DNA of 64,000 nucleotides from Planctomycetota bacterium (GTDB lineage Bacteria; Planctomycetota; SZUA-567; JAFGGJ01), in NCBI GenBank assembly GCA_016930595.1, contig JAFGGJ010000002.1:39698-103697 (forward strand). Direction: 5' to 3'. The notes beneath the pieces are model-generated. The model made no database searches and was not told where the DNA came from. It saw only the letters and a program-made list of their open reading frames with translations. This document shows, piece after piece, positions 1 to 42,891 of the stretch. The position numbers and the translations under genes are program-made. Each line of letters starts with the position of its first letter. The stretch's first letter is position 1.

Positions 1-141
1 AAGGAGCTGGGGTATCCGACCGGATGGGTGGGTGTGCTTACGAACGCCGAGGTTGGGGGGACGGACGTCGACGGCTTTATAGACAGGACCCGGTCTAAGA
101 TAAGGGCGCTGGCCGTGGGGGATGCAGGGAAGGCTGGTTGA
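1..141 (+). CDS. 3' end of an upstream gene (partial, product unknown)
   Basis: Frame 1 is open from base 1 (KELGYPTGWVGVLTNAE...GDAGKAG) to TGA at 139-141 and overlaps the start of addB. Confidence 0.55.
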   Translation, partial: KELGYPTGWVGVLTNAEVGGTDVDGFIDRTRSKIRALAVGDAGKAG

Positions 142-2896
142 CGCGGTGTTCGTTGTGGCGGACGGCATAAGGCCGCTGACAGCGGCGTTCGCTTCGGGGG
201 TTGCGGAATACCGTGCGGCGCATCCGCTGGACCCGTACCTGGTGCTGGTGCCCGGGTACGCATGGGCAGACCGGCTGATGAAGCTGCTTGCAGGTTCGCT
301 CGAGAAGGATGCGAGGGGCCTGCCGTTGCCGGGGGGGGAATTCATAGATCTGAACACTGCGGCTGCGAGACTATGCCCGGGGGCTGCGGCGCGTGAGAGC
401 GATATTTATGCGGCCGCGCTGTCGGCGGCAAAGACCATGGGCGGAGAGGACGCCGCCTGGCCGTCGGTGATCAATTCGGTGGCTGCGGGCATGACGGGTG
501 CGATTGCGGCGGGTCTGACCGCCGGGGAACTGCGGAACGCCGCCGCGGACATGCCGGGGAACCGCAGGCTCGGGAACCTCGCGTCAGGACTGGCGGCATT
601 TGCACGGGAACTCGAAACCAGGGGCCGCATGTTGCCTGAGCAGGCAATGCTGCGCGCCGACGGCGGTGGAAGCCTCCGTGGCGGAGCGCTGTTCATCTTC
701 GGGTTCTACGACCTGTCGGCCGCCCAGGAGCGGCTGGCCAGGAGGATAGTGGCGGGATTCAGGGAGGGTGGACGCCCGGTGAGCGTGTTCATGCCGTCGC
801 CCGGAGGATACTGGGGTGATTTTGCGCGGCGGACGGAAGCTTTCTGGAGAGAGGTCCTGGATGAAGAGCCGCAGACCGTCGGCGAACCTTTCAAGGCGGC
901 TGGATCGTGGAAGGTATGCAGGGCGGCTTCACCCAGGGAAGAGGCGGCGGCGGCCATGGCGCTGGTGCGGGAAGCCGTCGAGCGGGGCATCGCGCCGGAA
1001 AGAATTGCCATTGTGGCAAGGGACCCGGAGCCGTACCTGCCAGTTCTCGAAGCGATGCTTGCAGAACATGGGATAAAGGCGGATTTCGGCAGGGAGAGAA
1101 AGCTTGCTTCGACGCCGGCAGGCATGTTCGCTGCGGCCATGTTCAAGCTGGGAGACATTGCGGCGCCGGCACTGAGGGAGGGGCGTGGAAACCACATGCC
1201 GGTGGCTGCGTTCCTGAGGATACTCGATCTGCCCGCGTGTTCGGAATGCGGCAGGATGGCTGCTTATTCCGGAGAAACGGTCACGGCCGGAATAATCACG
1301 GTGGGCGACCTGATGAGGATTGCTGGTGCGGGCGGCGGAACGGAAGAGCCGGCCGAGGTCCTGCTGAAGGGCCTTGCTGCGCTTGTGGATGAATTGGTTG
1401 CGGCCATAGCCGGGTGGGCGGCCGGGGACACGGTGGGGATGTTTGCCGCGATAAAGAAGTTCACCCGGCCGGATGCGTTCGGCGCGGCTGAGGTCGCGGC
1501 CCTCATGCAGGAGGCGGAAACATCCGGCGCCGGTTCGTGCGGGCTGCCGGTATTTCTGCTGGACAGGGCAAGGGTCGGGAGTTCCACCGGCGGCGTCCAC
1601 GTCCTGAGCGTGATGGCCGCCCGAGGTCTTGCGCCGGAATATGTGGTAGTAATGGGGGTGAGCGAAGGGACATTCCCCAGGAGAGCGGGAGGCGGGGGGC
1701 TGTTCGGCCATGAAATACGGCGGATGATGAATGACAGGCTGAACGGGGAAGGCACCAGGTTCGCCCTTGCCGGGGACGCCGTGGCGGAAGAACACATGCT
1801 GTTTCACATGACGGTGTCTTCGGCCGCGGGAGGCATCTTCACGTGTTCCGGGGACGGCGGACCTTCGAGAATGGTCCGGGACATGTTCGGAGACATCGAG
1901 TACGCGGACCCGGTACCATCGGGAGCCGTGGGCGGGAAAGTGCCTGGACCGGTGAAAAGAGGGCTGGGGGATTTTCTTCGGAACGCCGGGAGGGGCGATT
2001 TTTCCGCCAGGGAAGGGCTCATGCGGGCCGGAACGGTCAGCGGGCGCATTGTGTTGACTCCGTCGCAGATAGACGATTACCTGAAATGCCCGTACCTTGC
2101 CCTGCTGAGGCACATGCTGCAGATCGGAGAGCGGCACGACGATGTGTCCATGGAGCCGGTGCCGGCATGGCTGTGGGGCAGAGCGGTGCACAGAATGCTG
2201 GACGAGGCATTCGCCTCCGGCGGAAAGACTCCTGCTGGAGACCAGGTCGATGCCGCGGTCAAAGCGGCGACCGGGGTAGTGGACGCCATGGAGGCAGACG
2301 GAGTAGTCAGGAAAGGGGCGGTGTGGCAGGGGAAACGCGAAAGGGTGATCCGGCAGATAAGAACCTACGTGGCACAGGAGGCGCGTGAAAAAAGCGCCGG
2401 CAGCGTCAGGCGGGAATTCAAGTTCGAGCACGAACTGGACGGCGACGCCCTGCTGGTGGGGAGAATAGACAGAGTGGACGCGTACGAGGACGGTACATGC
2501 CGGCTGGTGGAATATAAGACGGGGCGTCCAGAAGGGGCGGACAAGTACGCTCAGCAGCTCGCGTTGTACAGGTACGCCCTGTCCCACGGGCATGAAACGG
2601 GAGAAGACGGCATTGAGGCTGAGATGGTCTACTTCGACAGGCCGCTCAGCGGGGATGTCCAGGTAATAAAAGGCAAAGCGCTGTCACTGGACGCGGTTGC
2701 GGAAGGCATAGGGGCCCTGGTGGAGGCCTACAGGGCAGGGGCTTTCGTGCGCTATCCCGTCGGGAAGAATACGTGCGACAGGTGCTACATGTACCACGTG
2801 TGCCTGGTTTCAGCGGCGGCACCGACGCAGATAAAAGATGATTCGGAAGCGGCGCGTGCCGTGGACCGGGCGAGGGAGTTTTTCGGTGTCAGGTAG
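122..2896 (+). CDS. addB: AddB/RexB-like nuclease subunit (inactive helicase fold plus PD-(D/E)XK nuclease with Fe-S staple)
   Basis: C-terminal LVGRIDRVD...LVEYKTG...QQLALY; Cys pattern YLKCPY ... CDRCxxxxxC; degenerate helicase motif VMAARGL; directly upstream of a UvrD-like gene. Confidence 0.85.
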   Translation: MQGRLVDAVFVVADGIRPLTAAFASGVAEYRAAHPLDPYLVLVPGYAWADRLMKLLAGSLEKDARGLPLPGGEFIDLNTAAARLCPGAAARESDIYAAALSAAKTMGGEDAAWPSVINSVAAGMTGAIAAGLTAGELRNAAADMPGNRRLGNLASGLAAFARELETRGRMLPEQAMLRADGGGSLRGGALFIFGFYDLSAAQERLARRIVAGFREGGRPVSVFMPSPGGYWGDFARRTEAFWREVLDEEPQTVGEPFKAAGSWKVCRAASPREEAAAAMALVREAVERGIAPERIAIVARDPEPYLPVLEAMLAEHGIKADFGRERKLASTPAGMFAAAMFKLGDIAAPALREGRGNHMPVAAFLRILDLPACSECGRMAAYSGETVTAGIITVGDLMRIAGAGGGTEEPAEVLLKGLAALVDELVAAIAGWAAGDTVGMFAAIKKFTRPDAFGAAEVAALMQEAETSGAGSCGLPVFLLDRARVGSSTGGVHVLSVMAARGLAPEYVVVMGVSEGTFPRRAGGGGLFGHEIRRMMNDRLNGEGTRFALAGDAVAEEHMLFHMTVSSAAGGIFTCSGDGGPSRMVRDMFGDIEYADPVPSGAVGGKVPGPVKRGLGDFLRNAGRGDFSAREGLMRAGTVSGRIVLTPSQIDDYLKCPYLALLRHMLQIGERHDDVSMEPVPAWLWGRAVHRMLDEAFASGGKTPAGDQVDAAVKAATGVVDAMEADGVVRKGAVWQGKRERVIRQIRTYVAQEAREKSAGSVRREFKFEHELDGDALLVGRIDRVDAYEDGTCRLVEYKTGRPEGADKYAQQLALYRYALSHGHETGEDGIEAEMVYFDRPLSGDVQVIKGKALSLDAVAEGIGALVEAYRAGAFVRYPVGKNTCDRCYMYHVCLVSAAAPTQIKDDSEAARAVDRAREFFGVR

Positions 2897-5800
2897 CGAC
2901 GCGCACTCGGGAAAGCTGGTGGACGAAGCCGAGCGCCGGCGGCTCGTGTCGGATTTCGGCACCGACCTTGTGGCGGTCGCCGGTGCGGGCACGGGCAAGA
3001 CGCGCCTGTTGACCGCGAGGGTGCTGAGGCTCGTGACGGAAGAGCGCATCACGCCTGATGAACTCTACATCGCCACGTTTACCGAAAAAGCGGCCGCAGA
3101 GATGCAGGAACGGCTGCTGAAGGGACTTGCCGAATTCGGAGACAGGGACCTGCTGCGCGGGATGGAGGAGAATCCCGCCGGCACGTTTCACGCCAGGGCC
3201 AGGGCCCTGCTGGAGGCGTTCAGGATGGAAGCGGGGCTGCCTCCGGGCTTTTCGGTCATGGACTCGGACGAACAGGCTTCGCTGTATTCGGAAGTGTTCA
3301 GGACGTATCTCGCAGCGGTCCTGGAAGAGGAAGGGGAAGCGTCGGAACAGGTGTTCCTGCTGTCGTCGCTGGGCATGAGCGCGCGGCGCATGGAAGAAGC
3401 GGCCGTCGAATACGCGAAGCACCGAGGGCGCGCCCCGGCGCTCGCGCTCGAGAATGCCTTGGGCGCCAGGCCGGCGCCGGACGCATCGCGAGACATCGTG
3501 TCCGGCGCTATCAGGGCCGCGCGCGATGCGGTGCATCTGGTCAGGGCCAATCCGGAAAAGCCCGGCTGGTGCAAGGCCGCCGCCGCCCTTGAGCGGGCCG
3601 TCGAACTGCTTGAGTCCCGGGACATGGAGGAAATTCTCGCAGGAAAGATATCGCTGGACCTGTACGAGTATTTCCTGGAGGCAAAGGCGGATATAAGCCT
3701 GACGAAGAACGACGCCAGGGGAAAGGCCATGGAAGCCATCGCCGTGCGGGAGGCAATAGGCAGCGATAAGCCTGGAGAACTGTCGGGGGCCAGGGGGGCG
3801 CTGGCGTCGCTGGAGCGGACGGTGCTGGATCATTTCACACGGGACATGGCCGGGCTGTTCGAGGGATACTTCTCGGCGTGCGAAAAGGAAAAGAGCCGCC
3901 GCGCTGCGTTGACGTTTGACGACCTGCTTGTGCGATTGAGGGACCTGATGAGAGACAACAGGGAAGTGCTCGCGGCCGTCAGCGGCAGGTTCAGGCACTT
4001 CCTGGTCGATGAGTTCCAGGACACCGATCCGATCCAGCTGGAGATAGTCAGGCTGGCGGCGGGAGGGCCTGGCGGGGGGAGGCTTTTCCTTGTGGGCGAC
4101 CCGCGGCAGTCGATATATCATTTTCGCGGAGCGGACCTGCGTGTCTACGCCGGGATGCGCGAACAGATGATCGGCGCGGGCGGGTCCGAAGTGAACCTGT
4201 GGCAGAACTTCCGGTCGGTGCCGGGTATACTCGGGTTCGTTAACGCCGTTTACAGCGAATGGGCGGAACGTCCCCCGCATGACATGAAATCCGGTGCCGA
4301 ACCGGCGCTTTCCTACAACCTTGAGCCCCACAGGAACAGCGCCGCCGGCAGCGTGGCGGTTCTTGTGCCGGACGGGCGGACACCAGGCGACGGGAGTCTT
4401 CTCACGCATGACGCTGTCAGGGGCGAGGCGGCGGCGCTGGCGAAGCACCTGTGCGGGATGATGGCCGCCGGACGGACGGTGATCGACCCGGCGAGCAACG
4501 AAGAGCGCCGGTTCGAATGGGGCGACGTGGCGATTATCCTGCAGCGCATGACGCATGTGCATGACTACGAAGAAGCCCTGGAAGACGCGGGCATCCCCTG
4601 CGTGCTCGAAGGGGCGCGCACGTTCTTCACAAAATTGGAAGTCCGTTCGCTGGGGGCGATCCTGCGGGCAGTCTGCTGGCCGGAAGACGCCGGGACGGTA
4701 ATGGGTGCGCTTTCTTCGTCGGTGCTTGCGGTGCCGGCGGAAGACGTCATGTCTTCGGTGCGCTCAGGCTGGAAGATCAGCCTGGCCGACCCGTTGCCGG
4801 ACGTGGCGTCGGAAACGCTGAAAGCGGCGGTGGAATATCTCAAGGTGTTCCTGCCGCTGGTTCCGCAGGGGCTGACGAGGCTGGTGGAAGCCGTCCTGGG
4901 GCGGGGCGGCCTGGGCGCCGCGTTCGGCGCCGCTGATCCGAGCGGAGCCCGGGCGTGGGCGCTGAGCGCATTTGCCGAGCTTGTAAGAAAAGAAGAAGCC
5001 GCCGGCCGGGGGCCCGGGGAAATACTGGCGAGGTTTCTTTCCGCCGGCGGCGCCGAACTGACCCTGCCGCAGGCGGTGAACGTTAATGCCGTGCATATCA
5101 CCACCGTGCACAAGGCAAAGGGCCTGGAGTGGCCGGTCGTGGTTGTGGCGGACCTGTTGGCGGATTCGGCCGGCGGCTCGGGCGGCAAGGTGACGTCGCT
5201 TTCCTCGCATGACGGGCGCTTTGCGCTGGCCGTGCCGCTTGACGGCGGCAAGAGACGGCTCGAAACGCCGCTGTTCGAAATGCTGGCGGCCGACGAGCGC
5301 GAGTACCAGGCGCAGGAATGGCTGCGCAAGCTTTACGTCGCGTTCACACGCGCGCGGGACCTGCTGGTGGTTTCGTGTGTGAGCGTACGCTTGTGCAAGA
5401 ACGCCCCGCCGTCGTCGGTGAGAGCCGTGGACCAACTGGTCGAAACGGCCGGGACATCGCCCGGGTCGGAAGTGGTGCGGGTCTGCGGGGAGCAGGTCCG
5501 GCGAAGGGGGACGCTCAGGGAAGCGGTTCTGGCGCTGGATGCACTGCCGGATGCGGTCGCGGCGGGAGACGCAGGAATATTGCCGGCGAGTTCTGTTCCG
5601 GCGGAGGGGGCGGTGTCGGAAGAAGCGGTCCTGTTGGGCGAAGCATTCCATGAGGGAGCGGCGATCTGGTTCAGGACGGGCGTCAGGCCCCGGGTCGCGT
5701 CATACGCCCCGCCGGGGGTGGACCACGACAGGGTCGAAGAACTGCTGGACAATCTGGAGGCACTGGATCTGCCGGCCCGGGTCGCCGGAGCAAAATCCGC

Positions 5801-6074
5801 GCTGGTGGAATGGCCGCTGCTGTCCGGAGACGGCGAAGTCTTCCGGGCGGATCTCTTACTGCTCGAGAACGACGGCTGGACGGTCGTGGAGCTGAAGTCG
5901 GACCGGGTTGCCGATGAGGACGTTCCGGCGACCGTGGAGATGTATCGGCGGGGGCAGGTGTTGAAGTACGTCCGGGCGTTGAAGGCTTCGGACGTCCCCG
6001 TGGCGGGGGCGTGCCTGGTTCTTGCCGGCGTGCCCCTGGCACGGAACCTGGATGTTCAGACGGCCGACGCCTGA
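2886..6074 (+). CDS. addA: AddA/UvrD-family ATP-dependent helicase-nuclease
   Basis: Walker A AGAGTGKT, TFTEKAA, LVDEFQDT, VGDPRQSIYHFRGAD, NFRS, TVHKAKGLEW, LYVAFTRAR; C-terminal nuclease RADLL...VELKS. Start taken at GTG 2886, overlapping the addB stop. Confidence 0.9.
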   Translation: MSGSDAHSGKLVDEAERRRLVSDFGTDLVAVAGAGTGKTRLLTARVLRLVTEERITPDELYIATFTEKAAAEMQERLLKGLAEFGDRDLLRGMEENPAGTFHARARALLEAFRMEAGLPPGFSVMDSDEQASLYSEVFRTYLAAVLEEEGEASEQVFLLSSLGMSARRMEEAAVEYAKHRGRAPALALENALGARPAPDASRDIVSGAIRAARDAVHLVRANPEKPGWCKAAAALERAVELLESRDMEEILAGKISLDLYEYFLEAKADISLTKNDARGKAMEAIAVREAIGSDKPGELSGARGALASLERTVLDHFTRDMAGLFEGYFSACEKEKSRRAALTFDDLLVRLRDLMRDNREVLAAVSGRFRHFLVDEFQDTDPIQLEIVRLAAGGPGGGRLFLVGDPRQSIYHFRGADLRVYAGMREQMIGAGGSEVNLWQNFRSVPGILGFVNAVYSEWAERPPHDMKSGAEPALSYNLEPHRNSAAGSVAVLVPDGRTPGDGSLLTHDAVRGEAAALAKHLCGMMAAGRTVIDPASNEERRFEWGDVAIILQRMTHVHDYEEALEDAGIPCVLEGARTFFTKLEVRSLGAILRAVCWPEDAGTVMGALSSSVLAVPAEDVMSSVRSGWKISLADPLPDVASETLKAAVEYLKVFLPLVPQGLTRLVEAVLGRGGLGAAFGAADPSGARAWALSAFAELVRKEEAAGRGPGEILARFLSAGGAELTLPQAVNVNAVHITTVHKAKGLEWPVVVVADLLADSAGGSGGKVTSLSSHDGRFALAVPLDGGKRRLETPLFEMLAADEREYQAQEWLRKLYVAFTRARDLLVVSCVSVRLCKNAPPSSVRAVDQLVETAGTSPGSEVVRVCGEQVRRRGTLREAVLALDALPDAVAAGDAGILPASSVPAEGAVSEEAVLLGEAFHEGAAIWFRTGVRPRVASYAPPGVDHDRVEELLDNLEALDLPARVAGAKSALVEWPLLSGDGEVFRADLLLLENDGWTVVELKSDRVADEDVPATVEMYRRGQVLKYVRALKASDVPVAGACLVLAGVPLARNLDVQTADA

Positions 6075-6208: not shown

Positions 6209-6736
6209 ATGGCAGACAAGGCCAAGGCGAACAAGGTGGAAGAGGACGCTGTCGTGGAGCGCGCCAGGAACATGGCGGAAGAAGTAGCCGCCATAAGGGA
6301 TGCCGAGCAGTCCAGGTTGAAGGACATCCTGGCCGAAGCGGACCAGGTGTTACGGGAGACGATCACAATCGAAGCCGAGGTGACGCATCACAGTGTCCGG
6401 CGCACCGAACTTGAAAAAAGGCTGCGTGAACTGAAGGCCCGCGAAGAAGATGCGGAAGCCGCCATAAAGGAACTGGAAAAACAACTGGCCAAGTCCGAAA
6501 CAAAGGTTGGCGAAATGCAGAGCCGGAGCGAGGAGATGAGGCACGCCGTGGCCGACACCGACCAGGCGGTGGCGAAACTCGAAGTGGAACAGGACGCTCT
6601 CGGAAAGGAACTGGACAGGCTTGAGAAACAGAAGACCCGCCTGGATGACGACGTCAAGAGGTTGAAGAAGCTTCGCGAGGAATACATGTCCGCCATAGCC
6701 CAGTTCAAGGAAATGAAAGACAACCTTACTGGCTGA
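6209..6736 (+). CDS. coiled-coil protein A (paralog of 6773..7339)
   Basis: 175 aa, continuous heptad-like E/K/L/R-rich helix, no Pro; GGAGAG RBS. Confidence 0.85.
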   Translation: MADKAKANKVEEDAVVERARNMAEEVAAIRDAEQSRLKDILAEADQVLRETITIEAEVTHHSVRRTELEKRLRELKAREEDAEAAIKELEKQLAKSETKVGEMQSRSEEMRHAVADTDQAVAKLEVEQDALGKELDRLEKQKTRLDDDVKRLKKLREEYMSAIAQFKEMKDNLTG

Positions 6737-6772
6737 TCCCTGACAGTATCCGCCGAAAGGAGAAGACTTACC

Positions 6773-7339
6773 ATGGCAAAGAAGAAAGCTGCTAAGCCGA
6801 AGGCTGCTGCGAGCGCTGCAGGCAAGGGCAAGGCTCCCGTCGCCGCCGCCCAGGTTAACGAAGCGGTCATGCGGGCCAACGAGGCCATCAAGACCGTTGC
6901 CGCTTCCGAGACCGAGTGGAGGCTGGACCTGCTGAAGGAGAACGAGGATCTTTCCAGGGAGACGGTCGACACCGAGGTCGATATCCGCCGCCTTCTGGAT
7001 GAGCAGGCCAGGCTGAAGACGTATCTTGCCAAGCTGAAGAAGGAACAGGACGCCCTTGCCAAGTCGGTAACGGACCTTTCGGGCAAGGCCAACTCCGCCG
7101 AAAAGGAAAGCGCCCTCACAAAGGCCAAGCAGGCGGATCTCAAGGAAAACCTGGAGAAACTCGAAAAGACGATCTCCTCGCTTACGAGTGAAAACAACTC
7201 GCTCGACAAGGAAACCAAGAGGCTCGGCGGCCAGGCCAGCAAGCTGGACGAAGACGTGAAGCGGCTGCGCAAGCTGCGCGATGAATACGTGAAGACCATC
7301 GCGAAGTTCAAGGAAGAAAAGGACGACCTGCTGTCCTGA
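6773..7339 (+). CDS. coiled-coil protein B with Lys/Ala-rich head
   Basis: 188 aa; AAAGGAG RBS; C-terminus LDEDVKRLRKLRDEY nearly matches protein A (LDDDVKRLKKLREEY). Confidence 0.88.
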   Translation: MAKKKAAKPKAAASAAGKGKAPVAAAQVNEAVMRANEAIKTVAASETEWRLDLLKENEDLSRETVDTEVDIRRLLDEQARLKTYLAKLKKEQDALAKSVTDLSGKANSAEKESALTKAKQADLKENLEKLEKTISSLTSENNSLDKETKRLGGQASKLDEDVKRLRKLRDEYVKTIAKFKEEKDDLLS

Positions 7340-7409: not shown

Positions 7410-7440
7410 GCAATGGCGCACTGCCCACAAGGGGGGTATG

Positions 7441-10400
7441 ATGCCTGAAGATAATGACGACCGTCAAAGCGCCGAGGGTGTGCTGAAGAGGGCCGGGGAG
7501 CAGCTTGCTGTTCTCGGGCAGCGCGGCATTGACACGCAGAGCCTTAACAAACGGCTCGAGCAGGCCCAGATGAGTTTCGCCTCCGGCGACTACCATGACG
7601 CGGAACTGGCGGCGGGCGAAGTGATTGTGCTGGCGAAGGCGACGGCGGAGATGGCTCGCATGAGCGCCAACGTCGCCAAGCAGGAAGACGCCACGCGCCA
7701 GAAAGTCGCCGAAGCGGTGAAGGCCGAACTCGCCAAGGGCCTTCCGCAGAGCCCGGCGCTGGAAGCCTATCTCACCGGACGTTTCAGGGAGATGTTTGAA
7801 GACCTGCTCAGCGGCGATGAGTTCCAGCAGGCCGTGCTGGGTCTCGCCGGCGAGACGTTCAACAACCTGAGCGAGGAAAACGAGACGGTCACTCGCTCCG
7901 AGATGGACCAGAGGATCAGCGTTGCGGAGGAAAGAGCGACGTCGGAGGCATCCACGCTCGTCAGGCAGGCCATCGCCGGACTGCTGAATTCGTCGGAACT
8001 GGTGGAGAAGATCGACGCCGGCGCGCGCTCTGCAGCCGATACGGCCGTTTCGGAAATCCCGAGGTTCACGGAGGACGATGCCCAGGCCGTGGCTGAAAAG
8101 GTCGCGCGGAAGGCGATATCGGCGCTCCCGAAAGTCACCATGGAGGACGTCGAGAGTTCCGTCCGGACGGCCTTGGGGGAAGCCGGTTACGCATCGGCCG
8201 AAAAAGTGGCGGAAGATCTTGCCGCGCTCGAAGAGGTGGTCAAGGAGTCCGCAATATCGAACGAAGAAGTAACGGCGGTTGCGCAGAGGATCGCCGACAC
8301 CGCGGCGGCAAGAGCGGTGGCGTCGATGCCCGGCCAGGAGGATCTCGAAAAATTGGCGGAGGAAACCAAGGCCGAAGTCGAACAGCGGCTTTCCGCTTTC
8401 CCCAGCCCTGAAGAAGTGGCGCGTTCCGCCGCCGAAGCCGCCCACGAGGAAATAGTGGTCCTGTCAAAAGAGATACGCAAGCAGATGAACGCTCTCTCGT
8501 CAACCGTGGAATCGGTTGCGGGGCGCGAGGTGGTTTCTCCTGCCGAGCTCGAGGAGTCTGTCGGCGGCGTGAAAGAAAAACTCCGCGAGGAGCTGATTTC
8601 TTTTGCCGGGCGCGTGCAGGAGAAAGCCGAAGAGCTTGCGCAGGAAAACCAGGCAAGGATTGCGGCCCTGAAGGACGAAGTCGCCGCTGCCGCCGCGGCT
8701 GTCGAGACTCTCGATGAGATGGCGGGCGGGCTTGCGGCTTCCTTCGCCACCAAGGTGGACTTGGGCGGCCTGGAAGAAACCGTGAACGGAATTTCCGCAA
8801 CGGTAACGGCCCTGGAAGCCAGGATCGGGTCGTTCCCGGAGGAAGTGGCCGACAAGGAAGATGTCGCCGGCGTGTCCCTGGGGCAAAGCAGGTTGTCCGC
8901 CAAGGTGGACGCCATCGAGGAGAAACTGGGTATCCTGCCGGAAGAAGCCGCTCGCCAGGAGGATCTTGTCCCGATAAACAACGGTCTGGCGAACATCTCT
9001 TCCGAATTGAAAACGCTCGAGAAAAAGATCAGCATTCTTCCGCCCGAGGTCGTAAGCCGCGACGAGTATCTTGCGGCCATCAACCAGTTCCAGGAGACCA
9101 TCGGGGCGGTGGAATCCGCTCAGGCGAGCCTGGCGCTCCGTTCGGAGGTTGAGGAAGTCCTGGGGAACTACGTTCCGGCGGAAGCCCTTCGGACGCGTGT
9201 GAACGAAATAATCAGGCCCCAGATAGAAGAAACGCGCAGCTCCATACCGGAAGTGGAAGCCGTGCGGGATATTGCCCGCGTCGAAGCTGAAAACGCCGCG
9301 AGCAAAGTGCCGGTGTTCAATCCGCAGGACGTCGAAGAACGCGTGATGGACAAGGTGGCGCCCATGGTGGGTGCCCTGGTCGGTTCGGACCAGTTCATCA
9401 GCAACATTGAGATGATCATAAGCCAGCGGATCAATGACGTCATAGACGGCAAGGGCCTGGCTTCCGTGGACACGGTGGAAAAGCTTCTCGACAACAAGGT
9501 GAGCAACGCGGCCAAGAAATTCGTTACCGACAAGGAACTGGCGGAAGTCAAGAAGACGCTGTTGAAGAGGGGCGGCGAAGTGGACATTTCCGCCGCGGTG
9601 GAAGCTTTGAAGGCGGAAATGGGTACGGAGAAGCCTCTTTCGCCTGACGCGGTCAAGTCGCTGGTTGCAGAAGCCGTGCATGAGGCCCTGTCGTCGGGCG
9701 AGTTCGCCGAGAACCTCGGCGCGGCGCAGGACCTGTCCGGCGTGGACGAGATGGTGAAGGAAAATGTTGCGGTCGCCGTTTCCATGTTGCGCAAGGAACT
9801 GAAGGGATTTGTCCAGGAAGCGGCAGCCGGCCAGGAAGCGCCGGTCAACGCCGAAGCGGTCGGTGCCATTGTTGAAGAAAAACTGGCTGCCGCCGCATCC
9901 GCTCTCAGGGATGAACTGATGACCGCCGTGCAGAACGCCACGGAAGCAGCGGCGGCGGGGGTCGACGCCAAGGAGGTCGAGGGCATCGTGGCGAAGATCG
10001 TGGGCGAAAGTACTCCGTCCGGCGTGGACGAAGCGGCGGTGCACAGGATTATCGACGAGTCCGGGCTTGTCGATGAAGCCGGCGCAAAGTTTATTGCGGC
10101 CGAAGTCGTTTCGCATTCCGCGGCCAGCGCCGACGAAGAAAAAATAAAGAATATGGTTGAGGAGACCGTGGCTCAGAACCTCGGCGAATTCTTCCATCGC
10201 CTGCCCAAGAGCCCGCAATTGAAAGGGGTGATCAAAGAAGCCGTTGCTGCGGCCGCTCCTGCCGAAGGCCACGCTACGGCCACGGTTGATCCCGACGCTC
10301 TAAGGCCGGTCATACTCCAGATTGTCCAGGATGTTGTCCCGGCCCAGGCGGAAGGCGGAGGCCAGGTGGATCCGGAATCCCTGCGCCCCGTGATAGAGGG

Positions 10401-11181
10401 AATCGTGAAGGAACTGGCCCCGGCGGCCGCCGGTGTCCCCGAGGATCTGTCGCAGACTATCGAAAGCGAACTGCTCGGCTTCCTCAGCGACCCCGAGTAT
10501 ATCAAGAACCTGATACCCGTCCCTGACGGCCTCGACGTGGAAAAGATCGAGAAGATCGCCAAGCGCGAGGGCATGCAGGCCGTTATCCAGATATTCGATT
10601 CCGACGAGTTTGCCAAACGCGTGGCCGGCGTGGTCGGCGAAGGCGGCGGCGGGGGCGGCGGAGGCTTATCCGAAGAAGCCCTGCAGCACGAGGTGCGCGG
10701 GGCCATGGTGGAACTCATGGAGAGCGACCTGTTCATGGAGAAGATCAACATGGCCCTGATGCAGCAAGGCGCCGGCGGCGGGGAAGGCGGTGCCGGCGGG
10801 GCGGGCGTGGAGCAGGTTGCTTCCATGATAAAAGAGACCGCGGACCAGATACGTTCCGACCTTGCCGAGCGCATGGAAAAGGTGGAGAAAGTACTGCCGG
10901 ACATCGTCGGAAAGATTGTCGCGGAAAAAGGCGGCGGCGCAGATCCGAAACTTATCGAAGAACAGGTGACCGCGATCGTTGCCGACAAGGTTCTGGGGGA
11001 CAAGCTGGATCCGGAAGTGATTCAGGCCGAAATAAAGAACCAGACGCCCGAAGTGGTCAGGGAAATAGCCAACTCGGACGAATTCAAGGTCCTGCTGGAC
11101 GACAAGTTCAAGGTCATACTGAACTACCTGAAACAGGATGTCATCCCCAAGCAGGTCAAGAAACTCATGAAGAACCAGTGA
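7441..11181 (+). CDS. large acidic helical/coiled-coil protein with internal repeats
   Basis: About 1246 aa, Ala/Glu/Val-rich, no TM segment or signal peptide; recurring hxS[DPGS][EQ]F and hxTKxDh-like motifs; AAGGGGG RBS. Confidence 0.85.
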   Translation: MPEDNDDRQSAEGVLKRAGEQLAVLGQRGIDTQSLNKRLEQAQMSFASGDYHDAELAAGEVIVLAKATAEMARMSANVAKQEDATRQKVAEAVKAELAKGLPQSPALEAYLTGRFREMFEDLLSGDEFQQAVLGLAGETFNNLSEENETVTRSEMDQRISVAEERATSEASTLVRQAIAGLLNSSELVEKIDAGARSAADTAVSEIPRFTEDDAQAVAEKVARKAISALPKVTMEDVESSVRTALGEAGYASAEKVAEDLAALEEVVKESAISNEEVTAVAQRIADTAAARAVASMPGQEDLEKLAEETKAEVEQRLSAFPSPEEVARSAAEAAHEEIVVLSKEIRKQMNALSSTVESVAGREVVSPAELEESVGGVKEKLREELISFAGRVQEKAEELAQENQARIAALKDEVAAAAAAVETLDEMAGGLAASFATKVDLGGLEETVNGISATVTALEARIGSFPEEVADKEDVAGVSLGQSRLSAKVDAIEEKLGILPEEAARQEDLVPINNGLANISSELKTLEKKISILPPEVVSRDEYLAAINQFQETIGAVESAQASLALRSEVEEVLGNYVPAEALRTRVNEIIRPQIEETRSSIPEVEAVRDIARVEAENAASKVPVFNPQDVEERVMDKVAPMVGALVGSDQFISNIEMIISQRINDVIDGKGLASVDTVEKLLDNKVSNAAKKFVTDKELAEVKKTLLKRGGEVDISAAVEALKAEMGTEKPLSPDAVKSLVAEAVHEALSSGEFAENLGAAQDLSGVDEMVKENVAVAVSMLRKELKGFVQEAAAGQEAPVNAEAVGAIVEEKLAAAASALRDELMTAVQNATEAAAAGVDAKEVEGIVAKIVGESTPSGVDEAAVHRIIDESGLVDEAGAKFIAAEVVSHSAASADEEKIKNMVEETVAQNLGEFFHRLPKSPQLKGVIKEAVAAAAPAEGHATATVDPDALRPVILQIVQDVVPAQAEGGGQVDPESLRPVIEGIVKELAPAAAGVPEDLSQTIESELLGFLSDPEYIKNLIPVPDGLDVEKIEKIAKREGMQAVIQIFDSDEFAKRVAGVVGEGGGGGGGGLSEEALQHEVRGAMVELMESDLFMEKINMALMQQGAGGGEGGAGGAGVEQVASMIKETADQIRSDLAERMEKVEKVLPDIVGKIVAEKGGGADPKLIEEQVTAIVADKVLGDKLDPEVIQAEIKNQTPEVVREIANSDEFKVLLDDKFKVILNYLKQDVIPKQVKKLMKNQ

Positions 11182-11217
11182 CGGCCGGGCCCGGCTGTAC
11201 GTCCGGAAGGGTTTTTG

Positions 11218-11253
11218 ACGGAGCGCGCCGCATGGTGCGCTCCGTTTCATTTT
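11218..11253 (+). terminator. intrinsic terminator
   Basis: ACGGAGCGCGCC-GCAT-GGTGCGCTCCGT hairpin followed by TTCATTTT. Confidence 0.7.
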
Positions 11254-11327: not shown

Positions 11328-13565
11328 ATGGCTGCGAACAGGCTGGGCGTGCCCGCCCGCTTCATGGTGGTTGTGGCTCTTGTTGCGGGGTTTTCCGTTC
11401 AATCGTATGCGGACGGTTTTGTGATCATTGTTCCTCCGCATCCGCCGGTGCCGATGCCGGTGCCTCGAATCGTCCAGCTCGCCGTGCGCAAGCACAACGT
11501 CACGGTGGACATCAAGGGCCCGGTGGTGACTACGGAGATCGACCAGGTCTTCTACAACCCGAACAATATCCAGCTGGAAGGCGAATACCTGTTCCCCATA
11601 CCGGAAGGAGCGTCGATAAAGGACTTCACTCTTTATATTAACGGCCAGCCCGTGAAAGCCGAACTGCTGGATGCCGACAAGGCCCGCAAGACCTACGAGG
11701 ACATAGTCCGGCGCATGCGCGACCCGGCGCTACTGGAATATTCGGGGCGGGGCCTGTTCAAAGCCAGGATATTTCCCATACCGGCCAGGGGCGAACGCAG
11801 GGTAGTGCTGCGCTATTCCGAAATACTCACGCCGGACGCCCAGGTGTGGAGCTACCGCTATCCCCTGAACACGGAGAAATTCTCCTCGGCGCCGCTTGAG
11901 GAGGTGTCCGTGGAAGTCAAGTGCCAGTCGAAGCGCCGGATCCAGGGCGTGTATTCCACCAGTCATCCGGGCGGTAGCCTCGAAAAGCAGAAAGACGGAA
12001 TGGGCTTCACGTACAGCTGGTCGGACCGGAACGTGACCCCGGACAGGGATTTCCTGCTGCATTTCATAACCGCCACGGGGGAAGTCGGTGCCGCGCCCGT
12101 CGTTTACCGTGAAGCCGGCGAAGACGGTTATTTCATGCTGCTTGTCGGCGTCGATGCGCCTCCCGCCGGGCGCCGGGCGATACCCAAGGACATAGTCTTC
12201 GTCATGGACACGTCCGGTTCGATGAGGGGCAAGAAGATCCGGCAGGCGAAGGATGCCCTGCGCTTCTGCCTCCAGGGACTTTCGGCGAACGATTCCTTCA
12301 ATGTCATTTCGTTCAGCACCGGGGTGCACGCCTTTTTCGAGAACATGGTGCAGGTTGCCGATACCCGCGTGAAGGAAGCCCTGCAGAAGGCCGACGAACT
12401 CGATGCTTCGGGCGGGACGAACATTGACGAGGCCCTTGCCGAAGCGCTGAAAATGGTCGGAGGCCAGGACGACCGCCCGGCCTACATAGTTTTCCTTACC
12501 GACGGCCAGCCCACCGTCGGCGAGACTTCTGTGGACGGGATAGCCGGGGCTGCCAGGAAAGGCAACCGGCGCAACGCGCGGATCTTCTCCTTTGGCGTGG
12601 GAGACAGGCTGAATGCCAAGCTGCTCGACGTGCTGACGAGAGACAGCCGCGGCGCAAAAGTGTACGTGGGCGAAGAGGAGGATCTTGAAGTAAAGCTGTC
12701 GTCGTTCTATTCCAAGATAGCGAACCCGGCGCTTTCGGACGTCAAGATGGAAGTCCGCGGCGTGGAAGTGTACGATGTGTTCCCGAGAGAGCTGCCGGAT
12801 CTCTTCTACGGCCAGGAACTTACTGTGTACGGCCGGTTCAAGGGCGAAGGCAAGGCGACCGTTGTACTGAAAGGCAAGCGCGGCGGCGAGGCTGCGGCCA
12901 TGGAATATGAAGCGGACTTCGCAAGCGAAAAGAACGCTGAGCCGGTACCTCGTCTCTGGGCCGCACAGAAAGTCGCCTTCCTGCTGGAAGACATCCGCCT
13001 GGAAGGCGAAACCGCGGCGCTGAAAGACGAAGTCGTGCGCCTGGCCCGCAAGTACGGCATAATCACGCCGTATACCAGCATGCTGGTGCTTGAAGACGAG
13101 GAAGTCCAGGGCCGCCCGCCCATCCTGCGCGAGGCGGTCAAGTCCGCGGCCGACGCCGCCCCCGCCAGCGCGCCCGCCGTCGAAAGGGAATTCAGGCAGA
13201 GGGCGGAAGAAGCCCGCAGGAATTTCGGCCATGAACTGGGTGCCGGCGCCGTGAGGGCCAGCAAGGATATCAATGACCTGAAAAAGGCCGAGGCGCTGAG
13301 CGGCGATATCGCCGGCATGAGCACGGGTGGGCGGTACATCGAGCAGGCGATCAGGCGTTTTGCCGGCAAGACGTTCTACAAGGTCGGCGATTACTGGCAG
13401 GATGCGGATTACAATTCGGCCGACATGAAGACCATAGACCTGAAGTTCCTCAGCGACGAGTACTTTGCCCTGGCGGCAAAATATTCCGAACTGGGCAAGT
13501 ATCTCGCTCTCGGCGACCAGGTTATCGTGGTTCTCGGCGGGAAGGCCTACAAGGTATCCCCGTAG
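11328..13565 (+). CDS. VIT plus von Willebrand A domain protein (inter-alpha-trypsin-inhibitor-like), secreted
   Basis: Signal-like N-terminus; VIT (FYNPNNIQLEGEYLFPIP); MIDAS DTSGSM, GGTNI, FLTDG; ITPYTSMLV; AAAGGAGG RBS. Confidence 0.9.
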   Translation: MAANRLGVPARFMVVVALVAGFSVQSYADGFVIIVPPHPPVPMPVPRIVQLAVRKHNVTVDIKGPVVTTEIDQVFYNPNNIQLEGEYLFPIPEGASIKDFTLYINGQPVKAELLDADKARKTYEDIVRRMRDPALLEYSGRGLFKARIFPIPARGERRVVLRYSEILTPDAQVWSYRYPLNTEKFSSAPLEEVSVEVKCQSKRRIQGVYSTSHPGGSLEKQKDGMGFTYSWSDRNVTPDRDFLLHFITATGEVGAAPVVYREAGEDGYFMLLVGVDAPPAGRRAIPKDIVFVMDTSGSMRGKKIRQAKDALRFCLQGLSANDSFNVISFSTGVHAFFENMVQVADTRVKEALQKADELDASGGTNIDEALAEALKMVGGQDDRPAYIVFLTDGQPTVGETSVDGIAGAARKGNRRNARIFSFGVGDRLNAKLLDVLTRDSRGAKVYVGEEEDLEVKLSSFYSKIANPALSDVKMEVRGVEVYDVFPRELPDLFYGQELTVYGRFKGEGKATVVLKGKRGGEAAAMEYEADFASEKNAEPVPRLWAAQKVAFLLEDIRLEGETAALKDEVVRLARKYGIITPYTSMLVLEDEEVQGRPPILREAVKSAADAAPASAPAVEREFRQRAEEARRNFGHELGAGAVRASKDINDLKKAEALSGDIAGMSTGGRYIEQAIRRFAGKTFYKVGDYWQDADYNSADMKTIDLKFLSDEYFALAAKYSELGKYLALGDQVIVVLGGKAYKVSP

Positions 13566-30202: not shown

Positions 30203-30223
30203 GTTTTTCGGGAGGTGCTTGCT

Positions 30224-33200
30224 TTGGCGCGGGATTGCCCTCATTGCGGCGGGGAACTTCCGGGCCCTCCGGCTTCTCTTCCCGAATGCTGCCCTTTCTG
30301 CGGCGTTCCCCTCGCTTCACGCCCTTCTGATGAAACGATGTCCCTCGACCGCGCTGCTTCCGCGGCTTCCACGCTCGATGCCCCGGCCCGTTCCCGCCAG
30401 GCCCAAGAATTCCTCCGGACTTCCGTCGCGGGCCACAGGATTCTCGGTGAACTTGGACGCGGCGGCATGGGCCTTGTCTTCCTCGCGCACGAACCCGGTC
30501 TCGAACGGCCCGTGGCGCTCAAACTCGTTGATCCGGACCTCGCCGGTCCCCCCTCCCCGGGCGATTCCTCCGCTTACCTCTTCCGCTTCACCGAAGAAGC
30601 CCGCATCACCGGCCGGCTCCAGCATCCCGGCATCGTCCCAGTCTACCGCATGGGTTCCGACGAGGACGGCCGCTGTTTCTACACGATGCGCCCCGTTACC
30701 GAAGGCAGAACCCTCAAGCAGATACTCCGCGAACTTGCCGATGGAGGGCCCGCCGCAGCGGAACGCTGGTCCGTCCGCCGCCTCGTTGAAATACTCCGCT
30801 CCGTCTGCCTTACCGTCGCCTACGCGCATCACTGCGGTGTCATTCACCGCGACCTCAAGCCCGCCAATATCGTCGTCGGCGATTATGGCGAAGTCCTCGT
30901 CATCGACTGGGGGCTCGCCAGGCCGTGCAATGCTCCTTCCACGGCGGAAGCCGACACTCTTTCTGCATCCGCAGCCGGCGTCCCATCTTCCGATCGCATC
31001 GGCGTCGTCTCGAAACGCGGCGATTTCCAGCTCACGCTCGACGGCGAGATCGTCGGCACCCCCGCCTACATGTCTCCCGAACAGTCCCGCGGCGACCTCG
31101 GCGCCGTCTCCACGGCTTCTGACGTCTATGCCCTCGGCGCCATCCTCTATGAAATGCTTGCCCTCTCTCCGCCTTTCATCGCCGACAATCTCGCGGATCT
31201 CCTTGCCGCCGTCGCCTCCGGCGACATTCAGCCGCCTTCCGAGCGTTCCCCATGGCGTGATATACCTGAAGACCTCGCAGCCGTTGCTCTCAAAGCCATG
31301 GCGAACGCACCCTCCGACCGTTTCGCGTCTGCGCGCCTCATGGCCGATACCCTGGGCAATTGGCTCGACGGCGTCAGCCGCTGGAGAATCGCCGAAAGAA
31401 TCGACCTCTCCTCCCCTGCCGCCGCTTCCTGCTTCATCAGCCTCGGCAGCTCCCGCCGCCGCTTCGCCGTCAGGGACGGCGTCGTCTGCCTGAACAGCGG
31501 CGAAATCACCCTCATCTATGACAGGCGTTTCTCCGGCTGGATGCGCATGTCCTGCACCGCCTGGTGTGAAGGCAGGCGGGCCACGGAATTGTCCCTTGTC
31601 CTCTGTGCCGCCTCTCCGGACCGCATCCGCCACGCGGGGGAAGACGGTTACTGTCTCCAGTTCGGCGGCAAGGATCTCACCTGCCTCAACTTCGCACGCC
31701 ATCAGCAGGATGTGCTCCATATCCCGGACGTCTGCCCCAGGCCCGGCAGGAAATACTCCCTAATGGCGCAGGTCCTTGACGGCGAAGTTTCTTTCCATGT
31801 CAACGGCGAAGAAATTGCCTGCTGGCGCGACCCTTCCCCCCTCTTTGGCGGCTACGTGGGCTTCTACGGTTTCGGCAGCGGCGCCCGTTTCAGCGACGTT
31901 GTCGTCCAGACGCTCGGCAAACCCACCCTCGTTTCCGTCCTCGAAACACCCGATGCCTATTTCAGCGACGGCCTCTTTTCCAGGGCGCTCGACATGTATT
32001 CCGAAATCAGCCGCTCTCATCCCCGCAGGATCGAAGGCCTGCGCGCCGCCTACAAGGCCGCTCTCTGCATGATGATGCTCGACGACGTCTCCGGTGCCGT
32101 CGCCGCCTTCCGCAGGATGCAGCAGAAACCCGCTTCCGTTCCCCTTGGCGTGCTCGGCCACGTCCAGCTCCTTGAACGCGTCCATGACGAAGCCGCGGCC
32201 TGCGACTTCCTCCTCTCGTGGGCGCGCGGCGTTGAAAATCCTTCGCCGGCCTGGGCCGAAGTCGCCGTTTTTGCCTTCGACCGGGCCAGGGCGCATGTCT
32301 CGCGCCCCGATGAATCCTCCTCGTCTCCTTTCTTCGACACTTGGTTCGAATCCGCCCTCAGGCTCGTACGTGATCGCGATGAACTTGCCGTACGCGCAAG
32401 TCCGCGGTATTTCAACCGCCTCCTTTCCCGTTGGATCCGGCACCGCGTCGTCGCCTTCGACCCCTCCCGGGCCGAATCTACCGGCGGCGCGCCGTCCATT
32501 GCCGAGCTCAAGGCGCTTTTCTTCTGGCCGTCTTTCGACGTCCGCCCCGGTATGTTTCTGGAATCGGCCGACGCCTTCCTCCGTCTCGGTCGCCCGGATG
32601 CCGCACGTCTCATTTTCAACGCCGTTTTCTCCTGGTACCCGGACAGGGCGGATCTGCGTTTTTCTGCCCTGAGCGGCATAGGCCGCTCCTTCGTCGGCAC
32701 CCTGCACCTTGACACTGGAATAAGCTTCTTCGAAAAAGCCGCTGAAGTCGACTCAGCTCCTCCCGGCAACGTCTTGACCGCTCTGGATTACTGTGCCGCC
32801 GCCTGCTCTTGTGCCGGCCGGTATGATAAAGCCCTCTCCTGTTACCGCAGGATCGTCGCAAAACGGCCCTGGGCCAGGGCGGCTTCCCGCAAAGCACTTC
32901 TCTCGATCGGTGACGTCCTCATGGCCGACGGCGATTACTCCGCCGCCTTCGAGTGGTTCGTGTCCGTTCCGGAACTTGCCAGGCACCACAAGACCGCTTC
33001 TGCCGCCGCGCATTCCGGAGCCGGGCTGGCCCTCATCATGATGGGTCGCCTTGATGATGCCAGGGACTGGTTCGAACGGCGCCTGTTCGACCGTTCGAGC
33101 CGAGGCGTCACGGAAACCGGCTGTGTCCGGGCCGCCGGGCTGCTTCGTTCCATCGGCCGCCACGCCGAAGCCCTCGAATACCTTGATGCCGTCCGCTCTG

Positions 33201-33835
33201 CAAAGTCGGCGCGTGGCGAATTGCGCACTCTCCTGCTCGCCGAAACCGCCGAAACTCTCAGCCGCATGGGCCGTCATGAAGATGCTGCCTCCGCCCTCGA
33301 AGACTGCCGGCACGGCGCCGCTTCCGTCCGCATTTCTTTTTCCCTTCACATCGCTTCCGCCCACCTGCTGCGCCGCAGCGGACGCCTTGCCGAAGCCCTC
33401 GATGGTTATGCCTCACTTGCCTCTTCGGCGCACGTCTCCGCGGCGCGGGAAGCCGCCGCCTGGGTCGGACTCATCGAACTGAAAAACGATCCGGCCTGCC
33501 TCCCGGTGCTTTCAGACCGCTTTCTCGGCGTGGCCCTGGCTGAACTGGATGATCTGGAAAACAACGCCTGGGCCGCGAACTGGTGGGCGCTCGCCATGAT
33601 GGGCTTCCCCGGCGGCGCGGCGATGGACTTCCCAGCGGAAGCGTTCCACGGGCGTGCCGTGTCGGGCTGGGTCTCCGGCGGCGAAGGTTCGTGGGCGGCC
33701 GACGAAAGCGGCGTTCCCATTACGCCGGCGGAAGCGCTCCGCAGGACTCCACTGCTGCATCGGGACCGCTTCCGCGAAATGCTCCGCTTCCGCGCCTCTT
33801 TCGACCCTGCTTGGACGAAATTCGCCTCGCCATAA
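30224..33835 (+). CDS. Hanks-type Ser/Thr kinase (Zn ribbon, kinase, lectin-like beta domain, TPRs), PknD-like
   Basis: CPHC/CPFC; LGRGGMG, VALK, HPGIVPVY, HRDLKPAN, DWGLA, GTPAYMSPEQ; TPR-like helices. TTG start chosen 8 nt after GGAGG. Confidence 0.92.
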   Translation: MARDCPHCGGELPGPPASLPECCPFCGVPLASRPSDETMSLDRAASAASTLDAPARSRQAQEFLRTSVAGHRILGELGRGGMGLVFLAHEPGLERPVALKLVDPDLAGPPSPGDSSAYLFRFTEEARITGRLQHPGIVPVYRMGSDEDGRCFYTMRPVTEGRTLKQILRELADGGPAAAERWSVRRLVEILRSVCLTVAYAHHCGVIHRDLKPANIVVGDYGEVLVIDWGLARPCNAPSTAEADTLSASAAGVPSSDRIGVVSKRGDFQLTLDGEIVGTPAYMSPEQSRGDLGAVSTASDVYALGAILYEMLALSPPFIADNLADLLAAVASGDIQPPSERSPWRDIPEDLAAVALKAMANAPSDRFASARLMADTLGNWLDGVSRWRIAERIDLSSPAAASCFISLGSSRRRFAVRDGVVCLNSGEITLIYDRRFSGWMRMSCTAWCEGRRATELSLVLCAASPDRIRHAGEDGYCLQFGGKDLTCLNFARHQQDVLHIPDVCPRPGRKYSLMAQVLDGEVSFHVNGEEIACWRDPSPLFGGYVGFYGFGSGARFSDVVVQTLGKPTLVSVLETPDAYFSDGLFSRALDMYSEISRSHPRRIEGLRAAYKAALCMMMLDDVSGAVAAFRRMQQKPASVPLGVLGHVQLLERVHDEAAACDFLLSWARGVENPSPAWAEVAVFAFDRARAHVSRPDESSSSPFFDTWFESALRLVRDRDELAVRASPRYFNRLLSRWIRHRVVAFDPSRAESTGGAPSIAELKALFFWPSFDVRPGMFLESADAFLRLGRPDAARLIFNAVFSWYPDRADLRFSALSGIGRSFVGTLHLDTGISFFEKAAEVDSAPPGNVLTALDYCAAACSCAGRYDKALSCYRRIVAKRPWARAASRKALLSIGDVLMADGDYSAAFEWFVSVPELARHHKTASAAAHSGAGLALIMMGRLDDARDWFERRLFDRSSRGVTETGCVRAAGLLRSIGRHAEALEYLDAVRSAKSARGELRTLLLAETAETLSRMGRHEDAASALEDCRHGAASVRISFSLHIASAHLLRRSGRLAEALDGYASLASSAHVSAAREAAAWVGLIELKNDPACLPVLSDRFLGVALAELDDLENNAWAANWWALAMMGFPGGAAMDFPAEAFHGRAVSGWVSGGEGSWAADESGVPITPAEALRRTPLLHRDRFREMLRFRASFDPAWTKFASP

Positions 33836-40718: not shown

Positions 40719-41174
40719 TTAGATATGGAAAGGAAAACGATGCTCAGGCGTGGGACCCGTACGGCGGCCCTTGTGCGTGAGATCGAGCAGGGTAACGGAA
40801 GAGAGGTGCTGTCGGAGGGCCTGTTCAAGGCCGTCCCAGAGGAAGCGTGCGGAACATTCGGACGCCCTGGGGCAGGGAGGCGACGAGGACACGGAAGGAG
40901 AACAGGGGGCGAGAGCGAAGTCCTCGACTTCGCGCACGATGTCCCAGGCGGAGACGAGGGCCGGATCCCTGGCGAGACGGCAGCCGCCGCCGGCGCCCCT
41001 GCGCAGTTCGACGAAACCTGCGGAACGGAGTCTGCGGAGAATATTGTCGACGTATTGGGGGCTGAGTCCCTGGCCGCCGGCGATATCGGCCAGGGGCGTC
41101 ATGCCCATGCCGTAACGCCTTGCGAGTTCGACAAGGACGCGCACCGCGTAGCGGCTCCTGGTGGAGAGTTTCAC
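40719..41174 (-). CDS. Rrf2 family (IscR/CymR-like) transcriptional regulator
   Basis: KLSTRSRYAVR, LADIA, RGAGGG, three Cys (APC...CPRASEC), W..L; GTG start overlaps the upstream stop. Confidence 0.88.
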   Translation of the reverse strand: MKLSTRSRYAVRVLVELARRYGMGMTPLADIAGGQGLSPQYVDNILRRLRSAGFVELRRGAGGGCRLARDPALVSAWDIVREVEDFALAPCSPSVSSSPPCPRASECSARFLWDGLEQALRQHLSSVTLLDLTHKGRRTGPTPEHRFPFHI

Positions 41175-41575: not shown

Positions 41576-41589
41576 GGGAAACCTCCGTC

Positions 41590-42816: not shown

Positions 42817-42891
42817 GGCAGATCCTTTCGAGTTGCGGCAACGTCGCGGCATGAAGATATCCAGGGGAACGTGAGGAAGGCGATCATGGGA

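Follow-up and report, generated by a model that had tools for sequence, protein, structure and literature searches.

Coiled-coil structural proteins are few in bacteria and are poorly understood. The described systems closest to the one reported here are tropomyosin, each chain of which is one continuous helix of uninterrupted heptads and strict length without a globular domain; the intermediate filament (IF) proteins and crescentin, in which a coiled-coil rod, about 310 residues long in IFs and broken by linkers and a stutter, carries a non-helical head; the paired long helices of the rotary ATPase stators; and the large acidic scaffold proteins of the HubP/FimV and MamJ type. We know of no division or shape scaffold described for the Planctomycetota, and to our knowledge the phylum is reported to lack FtsZ. 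Here we analysed a 64,000-nucleotide stretch of DNA from a Planctomycetota bacterium (contig JAFGGJ010000002.1, positions 39,698–103,697 of the forward strand; hereafter the window, in which all positions are counted from its first letter) that encodes two adjacent small coiled-coil proteins, A and B, followed by a giant acidic protein. A and B are paralogous rods from an unnamed family of which we found no earlier description, their length is constrained across that family, and their genes are usually followed by one for a giant-type protein. We propose, tentatively, that the three proteins form a cytoplasmic scaffold or strut module.

Two paralogous rods of constrained length

Protein A (6209..6736, + strand; 175 aa) and protein B (6773..7339, + strand; 188 aa) are encoded by complete open reading frames (ORFs) with their own starts and stops and no ATPase head, and represent the A-type and B-type members of the family. 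Shine-Dalgarno-like sites precede both (GGAGAG 6 nt upstream of A, AAAGGAG 10 nt upstream of B), and their codon GC is of the coding type, with GC3 exceeding GC2. The two proteins differ in charge. A has a pI of 5.19, an acidic head (pI 4.61) and no basic tail, whereas B has a pI of 9.15 and the Lys/Ala-rich head that a sequence-only reading of this DNA had described (residues 1–61, pI 9.46). BLASTP aligned A with B at 33% identity over 136 residues (E 3e-18). From a shared RET motif to the last residue each protein spans exactly 127 aa, as that reading had stated while quoting the end sequences correctly, and these segments align without gaps at 38 of 127 identical positions; shuffled sequences gave 11.4 ± 3.2 identities, and none of 10,000 shuffles of B reached 38. 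Sequence comparison shows A and B to be true paralogs whose rod ends are conserved. The A-type relatives L015, L016, L018, P0011 and P0023 (related loci and proteins are cited by such numbers) are likewise 175 aa long.

A word-based search yielded only four relatives of B (P0001–P0004), and the ESM Atlas contained no match to B at 0.9 or above. A profile search over 1.84 billion representatives returned 598 matches at E ≤ 1e-3, 73 of them at E ≤ 1e-10. About 45 of the listed matches were small proteins of 142–260 aa covered from end to end, while the remainder were long coiled-coil proteins hit piecewise, which we treated as non-specific. The family alignment was built from 46 small members chosen for their end-to-end match, with a median pairwise identity of 26% and a minimum of 13%. 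The spacing between two nearly invariant residues, the Arg of RET (B62) and a Tyr (B172), which delimit the length-constrained rod segment of B (6956..7288, + strand), is exactly 110 residues in 39 of the 46 members. The seven exceptions deviate by −35, −14, −14, −7, −7, +7 and +8, and six of these are exact multiples of 7. Similarly, ten A-type sequences with identities down to 22% are gap-free from an SRL motif to the end. These alignments indicate that rod length is under strong constraint throughout the family and is not peculiar to the A/B pair. The suggestion of the sequence-only reading that rod length is constrained and the rod ends conserved is upheld, and the relatives do not vary freely in length.

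The rod follows a regular heptad pattern. In B a Leu occupies every seventh residue from 74 to 186, with the exceptions of A109 and T116. Across the 46 members the ‘d’ positions from B81 to B186 are 78–100% hydrophobic, mostly Leu, and they keep one register through 16 heptads in succession. At the ‘a’ positions B99, B120 and B141 the most frequent residue is Asn, and at several other ‘a’ positions it is Arg or Lys. According to the rules for GCN4-type leucine zippers, Leu at ‘d’ together with a buried Asn at ‘a’ favours parallel, in-register dimers. The family has this combination, Leu at ‘d’ and Asn at some ‘a’ positions, from which we infer the oligomeric state, the rules indicating a parallel, in-register, two-stranded coiled coil. 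An AlphaFold2 (AF2) model of B, calculated from a 17-row alignment, consists of a disordered head (residues 1–22) and one unbroken helix (residues 23–187; pLDDT 88.7) without a hairpin. With a rise of 0.15 nm for each residue, the zipper part would be ~16 nm long and the whole helix ~24 nm.

Neither protein falls into a described family. Pfam and NCBIfam returned a smear of unrelated coiled-coil families for A and B, all below cut-off, and the 46 members scanned singly matched 111 different Pfam families at E ≤ 0.01, most commonly DUF3450, KASH_CCD, APG6_N and DivIC. The IF rod family (PF00038) was absent from the 25 best Pfam matches of A or B at E ≤ 1 and from the 25 families matched by most of the 46 members at E ≤ 0.01. 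The crescentin rod family (Rod_CreS, PF19220) scored 15.4 bits with A and 15.3 bits with B against a curated cut-off of 100, and was matched at E ≤ 0.01 by 11 of the 46 members (best E 1.7e-4). A profile search of the PDB gave designed coiled coils, myosin, tropomyosin chimeras, M protein, and vimentin and crescentin fragments; the matches to vimentin, keratin and crescentin fragments (E 1e-3 to 1e-4) stood among generic coiled coils, a mixture that points to generic heptad-repeat behaviour. The best match to structural maintenance of chromosomes (SMC) proteins, TIGR02168, reached 27.8 bits against a cut-off of 567 and covered coiled-coil arm positions only. We found no evidence that A or B belongs to the IF, crescentin, SMC or PspA families, and no known family, among them SMC and PspA, which the sequence-only reading had named as possible owners, claims either protein. 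In the portions available to us of the literature on planctomycete and bacterial coiled-coil, cytoskeletal or IF-like proteins, we found no account of the family. PADLOC and PHROGs returned coiled-coil-arm noise or no match, and on this basis we reject an origin in a defence system or a phage.

The giant acidic protein and the conserved gene neighbourhood

The sequence-only reading had confined itself to A and B and overlooked a conserved third gene. This gene encodes a protein of 1247 aa (7438..11181, + strand, from the ATG at 7438; the frame is open from 7408) with abundant Ala, Glu and Val, a pI of 4.51 and a net charge of −101. No Pfam, NCBIfam, PADLOC or PHROGs family matched it above cut-off. 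Its first ~100 residues (7438..7740, + strand) form a conserved N-domain, delimited by alignment and AF2, in which three helices were predicted (residues 3–28, 34–48 and 52–101; pLDDT >90 for residues 10–70). Foldseek gave no PDB match to this domain at E ≤ 0.001. A word-based protein search returned the window's own protein and one relative only, and the ESM Atlas provided no usable match. At the other end of the giant, an amphipathic motif (NSDEF...YL..DVIPK..KK; 11071..11178, + strand) is common to L007, L008 and L017, with 39% identity to L008 over 56 aa, and is not kept in the L040 and L041 giants, which are more distant. Short helices with the pattern S-x-(E/D)-(F/L)-x3-hydrophobic (for example NSDEF, SSGEF and GSDQF) recur in the giants of the window, L007, L008, L017, L040 and L041; the window giant contains four against 0.4 expected, a count for a motif defined post hoc that we regard as a lead only. 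A related HS(K/R/S)xLR motif follows the N-domain in distant and short partners.

A, B and the giant gene lie on one strand with intergenic gaps of 36 nt and 98 nt. An intrinsic-terminator-like hairpin (11217..11246, + strand; 13-bp stem with 9 G-C pairs and a T-rich tail) begins 36 nt past the giant stop codon. The consensus-based terminator scan found 10 sites in the window against 6.6 ± 2.6 in shuffled sequences, and this hairpin has by far the longest stem, and the A-B-giant transcription unit probably ends here. The short gaps, the common strand and the hairpin together suggest a single operon-like unit.

The association of rod and giant genes extends well beyond the window. Downstream DNA was visible at 14 small-form loci, and at 11 of them (the window, L015, L017, L019, L020, L007, L008, L023, L028, L025 and L035) a hidden Markov model (HMM) of the N-domain matched the ORF that comes immediately 3′ of the rod gene. 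L007 and L008, which are the same places as L002/L003 and come from the same class as the window, each carry one B-like gene of 175 aa followed by giants of 1231 and 1476 aa. The first 65–140 residues of these giants match the window giant, as do the last ~55 residues of the 1476-aa protein of L008. A short partner of ~165 aa, essentially the N-domain alone, is found in L025/L042 and L035/L043. Among 401 sampled genomes of the phylum, 12 carried the rod family (E ≤ 1e-12) and nine the N-domain (E ≤ 1e-6); six carried both and in all six the genes were adjacent, counts on which we base no statistical claim of co-occurrence because the genomes are mutually related. The link between rod and N-domain genes is strong, without being universal.

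The rods themselves occur both in tandem and singly. Metagenome contigs from a scan with a 10-row alignment supplied further examples. In L015, L016 and L018 an A-type gene of 175 aa (66–68% identity to A) precedes a B-type gene, the product of which is 190–191 aa long in L015 and L016 and 178 aa in L018, where the contig end cuts it off. The L015 pair lies between an AddA-like gene, upstream, and a downstream giant that measures at least 993 aa. In L017 an A-type protein of 183 aa with an acidic head and a B-type protein with a Lys-rich head are followed by a giant of 1503 aa with the same termini, and L021 has the same A-B junction. The pair in L040 and L041 is built otherwise, with a divergent protein bearing a Lys-rich head, then a canonical headless member and then the giant. 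Altogether, tandem pairs were found in eight loci from three lineages, and single rod genes in five loci (L007, L008, L020, L042 and L043). In a quick maximum-likelihood tree of 63 rows, the A-type and B-type clades received SH-aLRT values of 89 and 94, respectively, and both contain the window lineage and the L017 lineage. This topology indicates that the duplication is older than the split between these two lineages and that the pair was inherited together and kept. The family-wide length constraint and the conserved gene partnership make the A/B arrangement more interesting than a chance pair would be.

Two further arrangements of rod genes were noted. Long forms of 380–440 aa, extended at the N-terminus by an acidic or Pro-rich stretch, occur in L026, L027 and L036 (genomes G117, G141 and G165). 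The gene after the L036 form encodes a protein with a zinc ribbon, an FHA domain and DUF4388, and its counterparts in L026 and L027, read by eye, are of the same kind; N-domain giants are absent from all three loci, which look like a second conserved context of the rod family. The second arrangement, in L042 (G165:C6) and L043 (G117:C26), comprises one rod gene, then the gene for the short N-domain protein (~165 aa) and then an adenylosuccinate-lyase-like gene; within ~2 kb there is also a gene whose product looks ParB-like by eye.

The other genes around the module in the window are of a housekeeping kind. Upstream lie an AddB-like PD-(D/E)XK nuclease (122..2896, + strand; 924 aa) and, overlapping it by 59 nt and directly preceding A, a UvrD/AddA-like helicase (2838..6074, + strand; 1078 aa). 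L015 and the beginning of L016 repeat the order helicase-then-A, which more distant loci do not show. Just past the terminator is a protein with VIT and von Willebrand factor A (VWA) domains (11328..13565, + strand; 745 aa), which has no counterpart after the giants of L007, L008 and L017. Farther away, a Ser/Thr protein kinase of 1206 aa is fused to many tetratricopeptide (TPR) repeats (30215..33835, + strand). An HcyBio-family homocysteine biosynthesis enzyme (41174..43827, − strand; PF01837, E 9e-154) adjoins a NIL-domain ferredoxin and a pyridoxal phosphate (PLP)-dependent enzyme; this homocysteine route is better known from methanogens. The window genome comprises 3.4 Mb in 96 contigs and is 82% complete. 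It contains MreB (contig C60, 280 bits) and gave no match to an FtsZ or tubulin family, in agreement with what is reported for the phylum, although at this completeness absence is not proven. A magnetosome link, an idea prompted by one paper (PMC12748827), was rejected, as the scan of the window found no magnetosome gene family.

Candidate roles of the rod–giant module

The reading that we favour, and to which we give slightly less than an even chance, is that the fixed-length zipper rods and the downstream giant make up a cytoplasmic scaffold or strut module anchored to a polyanion by the basic head of B. A and B would be small cytoplasmic rods, each a single long helix that needs a partner for stability, and would pair most probably as a parallel, in-register, two-stranded leucine zipper of ~16 heptads. 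Their length would be held by selection, with the two ends as the most conserved parts, and a rod end could dock onto the three-helix N-domain of the giant, which is the likely docking site. The rod gene was duplicated in the window lineage, where B keeps the disordered Lys/Ala-rich head and A has the acidic one. The head of B may bind DNA, an acidic lipid or the acidic giant itself. Such a module would act as a structural scaffold or as a strut of set spacing, and would be neither an enzyme nor a transcription regulator.

Several points weigh against this proposal. Every binding step in it, from dimerisation to docking on the giant and anchoring by the basic head, is a prediction from sequence and models. 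Because the 46 members were picked as small, end-to-end matches, the sample is biased towards proteins of like total length, but a gap-free interior does not follow from that choice. The gene partnership has exceptions on both sides. A rod gene stands without a downstream N-domain gene in L031, L037 and L038, and N-domain giants of 910–972 aa (E ~1e-10) stand without an adjacent rod gene in L044, L045 and L046 (genomes G377, G216 and G390), so that the N-domain protein can evidently exist by itself within one family of the phylum. The rod family is also sparse, as seen in the phylum sample and again at class level, where it occurred in four of 62 genomes at E ≤ 1e-5, one of them (G035) a weak match (E 8.8e-7) inside an open frame of 978 aa. 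This distribution argues for a lineage-specific device over a core machine or general housekeeping structure.

The predicted pairing geometry meets difficulties of its own. We counted g–e′ charge pairs in parallel, in-register dimers of the four complete A/B pairs, giving twelve combinations. In eleven of these, repulsive pairs were at least as many as attractive ones, and the difference between A:B and the mean of A:A and B:B was −8, −4, −5 and +5, which is not a consistent preference for heterodimers. The core layer at B141 is Asn in 10 of 17 B-type sequences and in one of 10 A-type sequences, the others having Gln, Glu, Val, Arg or His, so that an in-register A:B dimer would be mismatched in this layer. 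Taken together, these two simple rules point, weakly, to co-assembling homodimers or else to a geometry that is not in-register and parallel. In a structure prediction of the A:B complex the scores were 0.00 and 0.08, where the mark is 0.32, and we counted this result neither for nor against binding.

A more ambitious version of the scaffold proposal, which we consider unlikely as it stands, is a bacterial cytoskeletal or ‘molecular ruler’ system, not recognised before, in which two zipper struts of fixed length, one with a head for polyanions, dock by their conserved ends on the N-domain of the giant tether and generate an intracellular lattice or spacer of defined spacing. If the rods do serve as spacers or filament subunits, they would constitute a new kind of prokaryotic cytoskeletal element and a natural system for the use of coiled-coil length as a ruler. 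Whatever its role, the family provides a clean, testable case of a length-constrained rod with whole-heptad insertions and deletions and a conserved genetic partner. Its presence in so few of the sampled genomes tempers the importance of the module.

The sequence-only reading had taken A and B for a heterodimeric, filament-forming pair. In its full form this alternative holds that A and B are obligate heterodimers that polymerise into IF-like filaments in the manner of keratins, and we judge it improbable. The equal rods with conserved ends and diverged middles, the unlike heads, one basic and one acidic, and the co-inheritance of A-B tandems in at least two lineages are all in its favour, and conserved ends are also typical of polymers that join head to tail, such as tropomyosin and IFs. 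Against it, the rods measure 127–165 aa, their heptads run on uninterrupted by linker or stutter, and a tail is missing, all of which speaks against the architecture of the far longer IF rods. No IF or crescentin profile matched at cut-off, so that homology to IFs finds no support. The proposed likeness of the rod end to the IF helix-termination consensus holds at five of 15 positions when B 158–172 is aligned by eye (L, D, R, K and L); the hydrophobic spacing is one that any heptad repeat would have, and no profile supports the likeness. That reading had expected the two genes to occur together in relatives and had regarded singly occurring homologues as telling against it. The tandem does recur, and rod genes also stand singly; together with the charge and core-Asn rules, which do not favour an in-register A:B dimer, these single-copy loci weaken the obligate heteropolymer.

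In another reading, likewise a poor prospect in our estimate, the rods are nucleoid-associated proteins in which the head of B binds DNA, the zipper dimerises and the module organises or tethers the chromosome. Histone-H1-like heads rich in Lys, Ala and Pro are present in many family members, the module follows the AddB/AddA-like repair genes in the window and in L015/L016, and the ParB-like gene of L042 and L043 lies close by. However, A-type proteins and several other subfamilies lack a basic head, and where there is one it lies ~30–60 residues from the zipper, unlike in basic leucine zipper (bZIP) proteins. Apart from the giant, the neighbours are not conserved across lineages, and this constant partner is so acidic that it would repel DNA, though it might itself be the ligand of the head.

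That A and B are membrane-remodelling or coating proteins of the PspA/Vipp1/ESCRT-III type, or fragments of SMC-like ATPases, is very improbable: a length of ~180 aa and a basic N-terminus loosely recall ESCRT-III, weak profile matches fell on the coiled-coil arms of SMC, JetC and LmuB, and Vipp1 and CHMP rows appeared in the Foldseek listing for the N-domain, but B was modelled as a straight helix without the helical hairpin that defines ESCRT-III and PspA, which argues against such a fold, the SMC matches reached 23–28 bits against cut-offs of 567–729 in coiled-coil arms only, the ORFs are complete with no ATPase head, and the Foldseek rows had E > 0.3 and TM-scores of 0.2–0.36.

Comparison with known systems

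For the scaffold module that we favour, comparison with HubP/FimV and MamJ concerns the third gene only. Like these scaffolds, the giant is a very large, acidic and repetitive protein, in all likelihood cytoplasmic, with conserved terminal modules that could recruit partners. It differs from them in having no LysM, transmembrane or FimV domain, no family match and no magnetosome genes nearby, and the PDB offers no structural match to its N-domain at E ≤ 0.001.

The rods resemble the b/b′ subunits of F-type and the E/G subunits of V/A-type ATPase stators in being long helices, paired in the stators and predicted to pair here, of matched and fixed length, encoded side by side and suited to the role of a rigid spacer. 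Unlike the stator subunits, A and B have no transmembrane helix, share no sequence match with them and have no ATPase genes nearby. With the IFs and crescentin, the pair has in common a head that is not helical and a coiled-coil rod whose ends are conserved, and the two unlike chains invite the keratin analogy. The A/B rod is much shorter, has neither linkers nor a stutter nor a tail, and scores below the Rod_CreS cut-off.

Tropomyosin offers an architectural parallel to a strut of this kind. The two are not homologous in sequence, the relevant PDB match being a generic one (E 1.6e-6) to a GCN4-tropomyosin chimera. The A/B rod is about half as long, B adds a disordered basic head, and the partner is a giant acidic protein in place of actin. 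In common with tropomyosin, the rods are single continuous helices that lack a globular domain, their heptads are uninterrupted, their length is strictly kept, their ends are more conserved than the middle and their paralogous chains may be able to pair.

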